Positions 14,236-19,465 of a stretch of DNA of 64,000 nt are shown here, piece after piece. Origin of the DNA: Escherichia coli (GTDB lineage Bacteria > Pseudomonadota > Gammaproteobacteria > Enterobacterales > Enterobacteriaceae); NCBI RefSeq assembly GCF_003334815.1, contig NZ_QOWO01000001.1; one strand, given 5' to 3'. The notes under the pieces were generated by a model. The model saw only the letters and a list, made by a program, of their open reading frames with translations, made no database searches and was not told the DNA's origin. Position 1 is the stretch's first letter. Each line of letters begins with the position of its first letter. The position numbers and the translations under genes were made by a program.

Positions 14236-14518
14236 ACATTCGTCTTTAATGCACTGTAAATTATGAATTAATCCTCTAATTTATAGTGCTTTCTATTACC
14301 TTATCGCGTAATCCCATTCAGAAAACCATCACAAAAATGAATGAGTACAATTGAAAGTATAATTGCAATGTATTTTTTAAGTTTTACTTAATCGATATTT
14401 AGATAAACTAATTTTATAAAAAACACAAAATAAAATATCATATTTCAATGATTAGTAGTCCTTAAATAACAGTTACTAATCATTCTCTTTTCTACTTATC
14501 TTTATATAAAGGAATATT

Positions 14519-15070
14519 ATGTCCGCTTTTAAAAAGTCACTTCTTGTTGCTGGCGTAGCAATGATTCTTTCCAATAACGTGTTTGCTGATGAAGGTCACG
14601 GTATTGTTAAATTTAAAGGTGAAGTTATCTCTGCTCCATGTTCTATTAAACCAGGTGACGAAGATTTAACTGTAAATCTGGGTGAAGTAGCAGATACCGT
14701 ACTGAAAAGCGATCAGAAATCTTTGGCTGAACCTTTCACTATTCACCTGCAGGACTGCATGCTGAGTCAGGGTGGAACTACTTATTCAAAAGCGAAGGTT
14801 ACTTTCACTACAGCAAATACCATGACGGGTCAGTCTGATCTTCTGAAAAATACCAAAGAAACTGAAATCGGCGGCGCCACTGGCGTTGGCGTACGTATTC
14901 TGGACAGCCAGAGCGGCGAAGTAACTTTAGGTACTCCGGTAGTAATTACGTTCAACAATACCAACAGCTATCAGGAACTGAATTTCAAAGCTCGTATGGA
15001 ATCCCCAAGCAAAGATGCCACCCCGGGCAACGTTTACGCTCAGGCTGACTACAAGATTGCTTACGAGTAA
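14519..15070 (+). CDS. ygiL: Fimbrial major subunit-like protein YgiL
   Basis: 183-aa ORF with signal peptide; very AT-rich upstream region. Confidence 0.9.
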   Translation: MSAFKKSLLVAGVAMILSNNVFADEGHGIVKFKGEVISAPCSIKPGDEDLTVNLGEVADTVLKSDQKSLAEPFTIHLQDCMLSQGGTTYSKAKVTFTTANTMTGQSDLLKNTKETEIGGATGVGVRILDSQSGEVTLGTPVVITFNNTNSYQELNFKARMESPSKDATPGNVYAQADYKIAYE

Positions 15071-15120
15071 TCGCATTTGGCCGGGTTCGCCCGGCCACAT
15101 CATTAACGGATTAATGATAA

Positions 15121-17640: not shown

Positions 17641-18399
17641 ATGAAACTAATGCGCTACTTAAATACAAAGAATATCATTGCAGCAGGAGTATTACTCTCC
17701 TGTATGAGCAGCATTGCCTGGGGTGCCATCATCCCGGATCGTACCCGTATCATAATGAATGAGTCAGATAAAGGCGAAGCATTAAAACTTACTAATCAAA
17801 GTAAAAACCTGCCCTATCTGGCCCAAACATGGATAGAAGATACGAAAGGCAATAAATCGCGTGACTTTATTGTCACTGTTCCTCCAATGGTGCGTTTAAA
17901 TCCCAGTGAGCAAATTCAAATAAGAATGATAACTCAGGAAAAAATTGCTCAACTTCCTAAAGACAGAGAAACGCTCTTCTATTTTAACGTGCGAGAAATA
18001 CCGCCCAAAACAGATAAAAAAAATGTGATGCAAGTCACTATGCAGCACGCATTGAAACTATTCTGGCGGCCAAAAGCCATTGAATTAGAAGACGATGGGG
18101 TAATGACTTACGAAAAAGTTGAAATCATTCGTAGAAATGACGGTTCGATCCGCTTTAACAATAAGATGCCTTATCACGTTACGCTGGGTTATATCGGAAC
18201 AAATGGGGTAACGATGTTACCACAAACGCAAAGCTTAATGGTAACCCCTTTTAGCTATGCAAATACGCAGTTTAAAAATGTTCCGTCAACTTTTCAGGTG
18301 GGTTATATCAATGACTTTGGTGGATTAAGTTTTTATGAAATAAACTGCCCTGTAGTAAATAACATTTGTAATATTTCTGTAGCCAACCGAGATCAATAA
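17641..18399 (+). CDS. yqiH: Periplasmic fimbrial chaperone (PapD-like) YqiH
   Basis: 252-aa ORF (alternative start at 17650, MRYLNTK); signal peptide. Confidence 0.88.
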   Translation: MKLMRYLNTKNIIAAGVLLSCMSSIAWGAIIPDRTRIIMNESDKGEALKLTNQSKNLPYLAQTWIEDTKGNKSRDFIVTVPPMVRLNPSEQIQIRMITQEKIAQLPKDRETLFYFNVREIPPKTDKKNVMQVTMQHALKLFWRPKAIELEDDGVMTYEKVEIIRRNDGSIRFNNKMPYHVTLGYIGTNGVTMLPQTQSLMVTPFSYANTQFKNVPSTFQVGYINDFGGLSFYEINCPVVNNICNISVANRDQ

Positions 18400-18400
18400 T

Positions 18401-19465
18401 ATGCGCTACTTGTTAATTGTTATTACTTTTTTTATGGGTTTTAGTTCATTACCTGCATGGGCAATGGACTGCTATGCTGAACATGAAGGTGGAAATACCG
18501 TTGTCATTGGTTACGTACCAAGAATCTCTATCCCCAGCGATGGTAAAAAAGGTGATAAAATCTGGCAAAGCAGTGAATATTTTATGAATGTTTTCTGTAA
18601 TAATGCACTACCAGGCCCATCTCCAGGAGAAGAATACCCATCTGCATGGGCAAATATAATGATGTTGTTAGCATCAGGTCAAGACTTTTATAATCAAAAC
18701 TCTTATACTTTCGGTGTAACTTATAATGGGGTTGATTATGATTCTACATCTCCACTACCTATTGCAGCACCTGTATGTATTGATATAAAAGGAGCCGGAA
18801 CCTTCGGGAATGGCTACAAAAAGCCCGCAGTCTGTAGTGGCGGTCCTGAACCGCAATTATCAGTAACTTTTCCAGTACGAGTGCAGCTATATATTAAGCT
18901 AGCTAAAAATGCCAATAAAGTAAATAAAAAACTTGTATTACCTGACGAATATATAGCACTTGAATTTAAAGGTATGAGCGGAGCAGGTGCTATAGAAGTA
19001 GATAAAAATCTGACCTTCAGGATTCGCGGATTAAATAACATTCATGTCCTTGACTGCTTTGTTAATGTTGATCTGGAACCAGCTGATGGCGTTGTCGACT
19101 TTGGTAAAATAAATTCCCGAACAATTAAAAATACCAGCGTGAGTGAGACGTTTAGCGTAGTCATGACCAAAGATCCGGGTGCGGCCTGTACTGAGCAGTT
19201 TAATATTTTAGGGAGTTTTTTCACTACGGATATTTTGAGTGATTATAGCCATCTGGATATAGGTAATGGTCTGCTATTGAAGATATTTCATAACGATGGA
19301 ACAGCAACGGAATTTAACCGCTTCTCACAATTTGCTTCTTTTTCATCGTCTAGTGCGCCTTCGGTCACCGCACCATTCAGGGCAGAACTGAGTGCGAACC
19401 CGGCAGAAACGGTTGTTGAGGGACCGTTTAGTAAAGACGTAATCCTGAAAATCACCTATAACTAG
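18401..19465 (+). CDS. yqiI: Fimbrial adhesin-like protein YqiI
   Basis: 354-aa ORF with signal peptide, 1 bp after yqiH stop. Confidence 0.85.
   Translation: MRYLLIVITFFMGFSSLPAWAMDCYAEHEGGNTVVIGYVPRISIPSDGKKGDKIWQSSEYFMNVFCNNALPGPSPGEEYPSAWANIMMLLASGQDFYNQNSYTFGVTYNGVDYDSTSPLPIAAPVCIDIKGAGTFGNGYKKPAVCSGGPEPQLSVTFPVRVQLYIKLAKNANKVNKKLVLPDEYIALEFKGMSGAGAIEVDKNLTFRIRGLNNIHVLDCFVNVDLEPADGVVDFGKINSRTIKNTSVSETFSVVMTKDPGAACTEQFNILGSFFTTDILSDYSHLDIGNGLLLKIFHNDGTATEFNRFSQFASFSSSSAPSVTAPFRAELSANPAETVVEGPFSKDVILKITYN

Follow-up and report, generated by a model that had tools for sequence, protein, structure and literature searches.

An uninterrupted allele of the K-12-type ygiL-yqiGHI (Yqi-like) fimbrial operon in an Escherichia coli strain closely related to K-12

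Introduction

In Escherichia coli K-12 MG1655 (NC_000913.3), the chaperone-usher operon ygiL-yqiGHI (b3043, b3046-b3048) lies between ubiK (yqiC) and glgS, and its usher gene yqiG (b3046) is a pseudogene through the insertion sequence (IS) IS2I, which is 1,331 bp long, occupies 3186096-3187426, and begins 71 nt after the start of the gene. The operon has been typed before: Archer et al. 2011 (PMC3032704, Table 5) list ygiL-yqiGHI as π type, with “+” in strains W, B, and Crooks and “IS2::yqiG” in K-12. In addition, Wurpel et al. 2013 distinguish two related and mutually exclusive fimbrial types, “Yqi” in phylogroup B2, and “Yqi-like” in phylogroups A, B1, D, and E. The B2 operon is also known as ExPEC (extraintestinal pathogenic E. 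coli) adhesin I, or EA/I, and K-12 does not harbour it (Antao et al. 2009); the B2 Yqi cluster of CFT073 is the one that was cloned for glycan arrays (Day et al. 2021). Here, we analyse the ygiL-yqiGHI operon found at positions 14236-19465 of a 64,000-nt stretch of the E. coli contig NZ_QOWO01000001.1 (assembly GCF_003334815.1); this whole stretch is referred to as the window, and positions are those of the window unless another sequence is named.

Two further systems are useful for comparison. P (Pap) pili are encoded by about eleven genes, including the regulators papI and papB and the adaptor or terminator subunits PapE, PapF, PapK, and PapH. The Std, Stf, and Ste fimbriae of Salmonella are encoded by compact π-type operons, and Std is Dam-regulated.

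We conclude, with a probability of roughly 0.9, that the window carries the ordinary wild-type, uninterrupted allele of K-12-type ygiL-yqiGHI on an island between ubiK and glgS, and that the source, a phylogroup-A-like strain nearly identical to K-12, was never hit by IS2I. Published work and RefSeq already cover the operon and its clade, the way it is disrupted in K-12, and its intactness elsewhere, and this is not a discovery; what follows describes how the allele compares with its relatives.

Results

The initial annotation of this region, made from the letters alone, had described four contiguous and uninterrupted chaperone-usher genes, and had held the usher gene to be broken by IS2 in MG1655 but intact here. 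Both statements are borne out. The open reading frames (ORFs) of ygiL, yqiG, yqiH, and yqiI are located where that annotation put them, contiguous on the same strand with very short gaps from 14519 to 19465, and there are zero internal stops in the translation of each; all four genes are free of IS elements, frameshifts, and premature stops. Position 14236 is the base directly after the ubiK stop codon, and 19465 is the end of the yqiI stop codon. Gene lengths (Table 1) match the copies that RefSeq annotates as intact in strains MB10 and STEC2017-197, the second being a Shiga toxin-producing E. coli (STEC). The MB10 copy is near-identical to the one in the window (one mismatch in 9,775 bp), and its usher is a complete coding sequence in RefSeq. 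The length first given for the usher, 837 aa, stands for the longest ORF, which opens at the first GTG (15121), but not for the annotated protein, which has 834 aa; for the chaperone yqiH, an alternative ATG at 17641 would likewise give 252 aa.

The window aligns collinearly with MG1655 3,170,896-3,236,231. Up to position 15,200 it does not differ from MG1655 (100% identity); across the other 48.8 kb, identity is 99.975%, with 11 single-nucleotide polymorphisms (SNPs). At the insertion site, MG1655 reads ...CCGTTAT, then IS2, then GTTAT-CATCATT, whereas the window reads ...CCGTTATCATCATT, with a single GTTAT. MG1655 thus has a usher pseudogene created by IS2I with its GTTAT duplication, at the same ubiK-glgS locus and among the same four genes, and the window has an uninterrupted usher. 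The alignment to MG1655 that had been proposed as a check confirms that IS2 is absent and that no frameshift is present; the “1 gap” that BLAST gives against MG1655 is an artefact of the alignment edge, where the target site is duplicated. Nucleotide identity is complete (100%) before the IS site and 99.97% after it, and just two SNPs fall within the operon, at 16374 in yqiG and 18790 in yqiI. Both are synonymous, and the encoded proteins are therefore equal to the reconstructed K-12 proteins.

Table 1. Features of the ygiL-yqiGHI locus, with positions in the window
Feature	Position	Strand	Size or basis
Island left edge	14176..14235	+	within last ~20 codons of ubiK
AT-rich regulatory spacer ubiK-ygiL	14236..14518	+	283 bp, 23.3% GC; composition; published H-NS site
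Sigma-70 promoter TCGATA-17-TATAAA	14392..14420	+	sole match in window; 0 expected in shuffles
Perfect 11-nt inverted repeat AATGATTAGTA / TACTAATCATT, 16 nt between arms	14447..14484	+	predicted 5' leader, promoter to ygiL start
ygiL, major fimbrial subunit (pilin) with signal peptide	14519..15070	+	183 aa
yqiG, outer-membrane usher, uninterrupted	15130..17634	+	834 aa from annotated ATG (RefSeq, EcoCyc)
Empty IS2 target site, single GTTAT	15196..15200	+	duplicated flanking IS2I in MG1655
yqiH, PapD-like periplasmic chaperone	17650..18399	+	249 aa from annotated ATG
yqiI, putative two-domain tip adhesin	18401..19465	+	354 aa
Island right edge and GC-rich hairpin terminating convergent glgS	19479..19504	-	homology boundary, hairpin scan

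How common is the uninterrupted state? When 5,426 complete E. coli genomes were searched with a 300-bp probe that has the IS2 site at its centre, 3,279 gave a match, and 2,907 of these carriers have a contiguous site. A second probe, over the junction of yqiG and IS2 in K-12, has full-length matches in 357 genomes, and nearly all of the 372 non-contiguous carriers are therefore accounted for. Among the matches listed, the carriers of this junction are MG1655, ER1709, DH5alpha, and a “Laboratory developed” strain, all of them K-12-type or laboratory strains. About 40% of complete E. coli genomes are without the operon. Looking at the operon as a whole, an IS was present somewhere in 6 of 18 carriers from an evenly spaced sample, a rough figure that includes K-12 laboratory strains; in a second sample, the usher contained an IS in 5 of 30, three of the five being the IS2 (K-12-type) insertion. 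As a separate observation, a 56-bp piece of yqiG (window 15877-15932) is found on E. coli plasmids at 98% identity, and searches with the operon or the usher gave 72-74 plasmid matches in total. In a single plasmid that was looked at more closely, this piece (L010, 2501-2556) lies between IS1A and a TnAs3 transposase gene, and it is probably a scrap taken by IS1 from a chromosomal yqiG insertion.

The composition of the locus sets it apart from its surroundings. GC content is 23.3% in the spacer (14236-14518), 41.1% in the operon, and 52.2% in the remaining window, and GC at third codon positions (GC3) is 0.32-0.39 in the four operon genes vs. 0.39-0.62 in twelve flanking genes. Of the latter, yqiJ alone (0.39) reaches the range of the operon, and the other eleven range from 0.43 to 0.62. 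The marked AT-richness first noted for the operon and its upstream spacer is thus upheld against the flanking genes. The same is the case for the proposal of horizontal acquisition, as a low-GC block of ~5.3 kb (~14176-19478) is missing where ubiK and glgS adjoin. In genomes without the operon, the ubiK-glgS distance is 35 bp, and this empty site is present in B2 genomes. Homology to one such empty-site genome (L006) stops at 14175, 60 nt before the ubiK stop, and picks up again at 19479, next to a terminator-like hairpin on the minus strand (19504-19485). From this break and resumption of homology, we therefore place the low-GC island at ~5.3 kb, and it supplies its own version of the C-terminal ~20 residues of UbiK. 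The tails of the protein do differ: UbiK has 96 aa in island genomes, and 99 aa in island-free genomes, where it ends in ...ARNNPAAELQSPPAIPPVDKAE; in the empty-site genome used here, the tail reads ...ELEARNNPAAELQSPPAIPPVDKAE and then the stop.

All four proteins match NCBIfam or Pfam models, in line with the four-gene chaperone-usher operon first described. YgiL has a signal-peptide-like N-terminus, scores 384 bits to the NCBIfam equivalog NF007276 (cutoff 189), and matches the Pfam pilin family Fimbrial (PF00419) at 2e-21 over residues 31-182. YqiG has the full set of usher domains (PapC_N 38-180, Usher 198-750 with an E-value of 2e-190, and PapC_C 762-814); its residues 34-833 align with PapC 1-808 at 578 bits, compared to 291 bits for FimD. 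YqiH has both chaperone domains (PapD_N at 2e-35 and PapD_C at 3e-7), and is closer to PapD (147 bits, 6e-42) than to FimC (84 bits). Because PapC and PapD outscore FimD and FimC, the operon is by sequence a member of the Pap-like π clade in the scheme of Nuccio and Baumler, which agrees with Table 5 of PMC3032704. YqiI matched no NCBIfam family, and its match to Pfam was a weak one to Fimbrial. Its structure model resembles two-domain tip adhesins of the PapG class, with a β-rich N-terminal region of ~200 aa, a putative receptor-binding domain, followed by a predicted C-terminal pilin domain.

Compared to P pili, the usher is PapC-like over its full length and the chaperone PapD-like, yet the window operon has only four genes, is without equivalents of the PapE/F/K/H adaptor or terminator subunits, and is without papI/papB regulators and without GATC in its regulatory spacer. 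The best NCBIfam matches of the usher and chaperone are to the Salmonella Std, Stf, and Ste systems, whose operons are compact and π-type like this one. The usher scores 695 bits to the StdB model and the chaperone 140-151 bits to the StdC, SteC, and StfD models. These scores are well under the equivalog cutoffs (e.g., 695 vs. 1289), and the Salmonella systems are relatives rather than orthologues.

Within E. coli, the position between ubiK and glgS and the near-identity to the K-12 genes identify the operon as K-12-type. In the scheme of Wurpel et al., it belongs to the “Yqi-like” type, with the same locus, the same gene order, and the same π clade, and no substantive difference. The B2 operon is related and distinct. 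In strain Nissle (L005, 3940-8914), a related four-gene operon lies between yqiD and ribB, a site that is empty in the window (~12657-12917). Protein identity between the B2 and window operons is 59% for YgiL, 55% for YqiG, 51% for YqiH, and 38% for YqiI, the usher genes are ~65% identical in DNA, and ~1,000 genomes carry the usher gene of ~65% identity. EA/I, as found in IMT5155, UTI89, CFT073, and Nissle, has the same order of subunit, usher, chaperone, and adhesin, belongs to the same clade, and occupies a neighbouring intergenic site; however, the window operon lacks both the yqiD-ribB position and high identity to the IMT5155/UTI89/CFT073 cluster. Of the two, only EA/I has adhesion, chicken-lung, and glycan-array data in the literature searched. 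It may be added as a side observation that two paralogous π-fimbrial islands flank the same two housekeeping genes, ribB and ubiK.

The spacer between ubiK and ygiL is where regulation has been documented. Shimada et al. 2014 (PMC3946193) recovered the yqiC(ubiK)>ygiL spacer as an H-NS site by genomic SELEX (systematic evolution of ligands by exponential enrichment), i.e., by in vitro binding, and the same source reports a constitutive sigma-70 promoter for ygiL, TCGATA-17-TATAAA, which is found in the window (Table 1). In the phylogroup B1/STEC alleles (L007, L009), the hexamers are TCCATA and CATAAA, and promoter strength may differ between alleles. On the expression side, BolA overexpression raises ygiL transcripts, and Yqi-like genes are more highly expressed in non-O157 STEC associated with haemolytic uraemic syndrome (HUS). 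The initial annotation had called the operon typical of H-NS-silenced fimbriae. The published in vitro H-NS site in the spacer supports the binding part of this claim, but derepression in an hns mutant was not found in the literature searched; composition and in vitro binding together are consistent with silencing by H-NS in vivo.

No regulator genes lie within the island. The spacer holds no GATC, the nearest sites being at 14206 and 14711, and as no GATC lies between these two positions, a Pap/Std-style Dam(-Lrp) phase switch was rejected. Another candidate, a regulatory hairpin or operator at the inverted repeat in the predicted leader (14447-14484), was rejected on a leader fold z of only -1.57 and on left-arm changes that are uncompensated in other alleles. 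An Rfam scan found no structured RNA within the operon. A generic promoter and terminator scan was uninformative in DNA this rich in AT, finding 10 elements vs. 15.8 expected in shuffles. For the whole window, the GATC count is 309 vs. 235 ± 15 in dinucleotide-preserving shuffles, none of which reached 309.

Selection was assessed against the allele of STEC2017-197 (L007), which is intact and ~95% identical to that of the window, using the ratio of nonsynonymous to synonymous substitution rates (dN/dS). This ratio is 0.01 for ygiL, 0.11 for yqiG, 0.12 for yqiH, and 0.08 for yqiI, and because values of 0.01-0.12 are found against an allele ~95% identical, they indicate purifying selection on all four proteins. 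The synonymous rate itself (dS) is uneven: it is 0.05 in ubiK, 0.09 in yqiG, 0.27 in ygiL, and 0.48 in yqiI overall, and reaches 0.84 in the N-terminal domain of YqiI, where dN/dS is 0.07 despite this divergence. Nucleotide identity between the window and the STEC allele dips to 82% around 18750-19000, and the B1/STEC alleles, ~95% identical overall, are only 89% identical in yqiI. This pattern suggests that the yqiI alleles may be ancient, or else imported or recombined.

Elsewhere in the window, Rfam identifies an FMN (flavin mononucleotide) riboswitch at 13675-13823, in front of ribB. It also finds two RNAs of the Sib antitoxin family at 22520-22669 and 22895-23044, downstream of yqiK; these are sibD and sibE, accompanied by their ibs toxin genes, and the arrangement is K-12-like. 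In strain MB10 (L001, 9634-10545; window ~20633-20780), an IS1A element interrupts the nearby flotillin gene yqiK, and unlike in MB10 the yqiK gene of the window (20633-22294) is intact.

Discussion

The initial annotation had called the operon “potentially functional”. An usher that aligns end to end with PapC, and dN/dS values of 0.01-0.12 against a divergent intact allele, are consistent with this wording. We infer from the known chaperone-usher pathway how the products would work together, and pilus assembly, the tip location of YqiI, and receptor binding are all part of that inference. The sigma-70 promoter in the spacer would drive transcription, which, under laboratory conditions, would probably be held down by H-NS bound to this 23%-GC DNA. 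All four products would be exported by Sec. The PapD-like chaperone YqiH would cap the subunits through donor-strand complementation, and the PapC-like usher YqiG would form the assembly pore in the outer membrane. YqiI, with its two putative domains, would enter this pore first, and so come to lie at the tip as the receptor-binding adhesin, and the shaft below would be built from YgiL, polymerised through donor-strand exchange.

Several points weigh against this picture of a working allele. In the literature searched, there was no report of this operon type making pili or binding anything, and no functional study among the occurrences of “Yqi-like”. For H-NS, the evidence stops at binding in vitro. 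Low-confidence loops are present in the modelled N-terminal domain of YqiI (predicted local distance difference test, pLDDT, below 50 at 70-81, 127-150, and 192-199), and because of these loops the model does not establish a defined lectin pocket. In addition, other strains have been hit independently by IS1, IS2, IS3, ISEc33, and IS903B in the operon, the usher of GN4751 is annotated with an internal stop, and yqiH and yqiI of 1919D3 are annotated as frameshifted, although these last cases are annotation only and may be assembly errors. Because independent lesions are this many, the operon is dispensable in many lineages.

On one hand, these observations raise the alternative that the operon is a silent relic, with reading frames that are still open but never usefully expressed and drifting to loss, so that intactness would have no phenotypic meaning. 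Disruption by at least five IS types, together with the annotated internal stop and frameshifts, favours such a relic, as do the ~40% of complete genomes without the operon, a spacer that is an H-NS target, and pili of this type being unreported in the literature searched. On the other hand, dN/dS of 0.01-0.12 in all four genes, at dS of 0.09-0.48, points to proteins maintained by selection; transcripts have been detected and differ between STEC groups; and ygiL responds to BolA. We therefore regard the relic as unlikely, and retain the reading of an ordinary wild-type allele.

A second alternative concerns the source of the DNA rather than the operon, namely that the window is a K-12 derivative from which IS2I was precisely excised. 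Complete identity to MG1655 over the first 15.2 kb, and 99.975% over the rest, would fit such a history. However, the eleven SNPs in the downstream 48.8 kb are not expected in K-12 derivatives; they are scattered from 16374 to 59160 and are mostly far outside the operon. The site itself has a clean single GTTAT, and several unrelated wild isolates (from calf, pig, horse, human, and seawater) are ~100% identical to the window over one 24-kb stretch, which is free of IS in them. Because of the scattered SNPs and these matches to wild isolates, the source is best seen as a natural relative of K-12 and not an IS2-excised derivative, and excision is very improbable.

Least credible of all is that the operon is the EA/I virulence fimbria, such that the EA/I receptors (terminal β-GlcNAc, Lewis A, and blood group B) and chicken lung colonisation would apply to it: shared gene names, gene order, and π clade, and a distance of ~1.3 kb between the two operons on the chromosome, speak for this identity, but it is ruled out by the different insertion site (yqiD-ribB in B2, not ubiK-glgS) and protein identities of only 59, 55, 51, and 38%, as well as by Antao et al., who exclude K-12, and Wurpel et al., who separate the types. 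Because EA/I is a different, B2-specific operon, its adhesion and glycan data are inapplicable to the window operon, and findings published for EA/I (Yqi) should not be transferred to ygiL-yqiGHI.

For the K-12-type operon read here as wild type, it is K-12 that is the odd one out at this locus. Tests of the operon would have a convenient background in MG1655 freed of IS2I, or in a K-12-like strain whose copy is naturally intact. We also consider, tentatively and with more doubt than confidence, that commensal E. coli, STEC, and enterotoxigenic E. coli (ETEC) express the Yqi-like fimbria as a colonisation factor, with its adhesin kept as several ancient alleles. If this is true, the adhesin variants would be long-lived or imported by recombination and would differ in receptor or antigenic specificity, and strains of this kind, whose usher is uninterrupted, could display the fimbria, unlike K-12.

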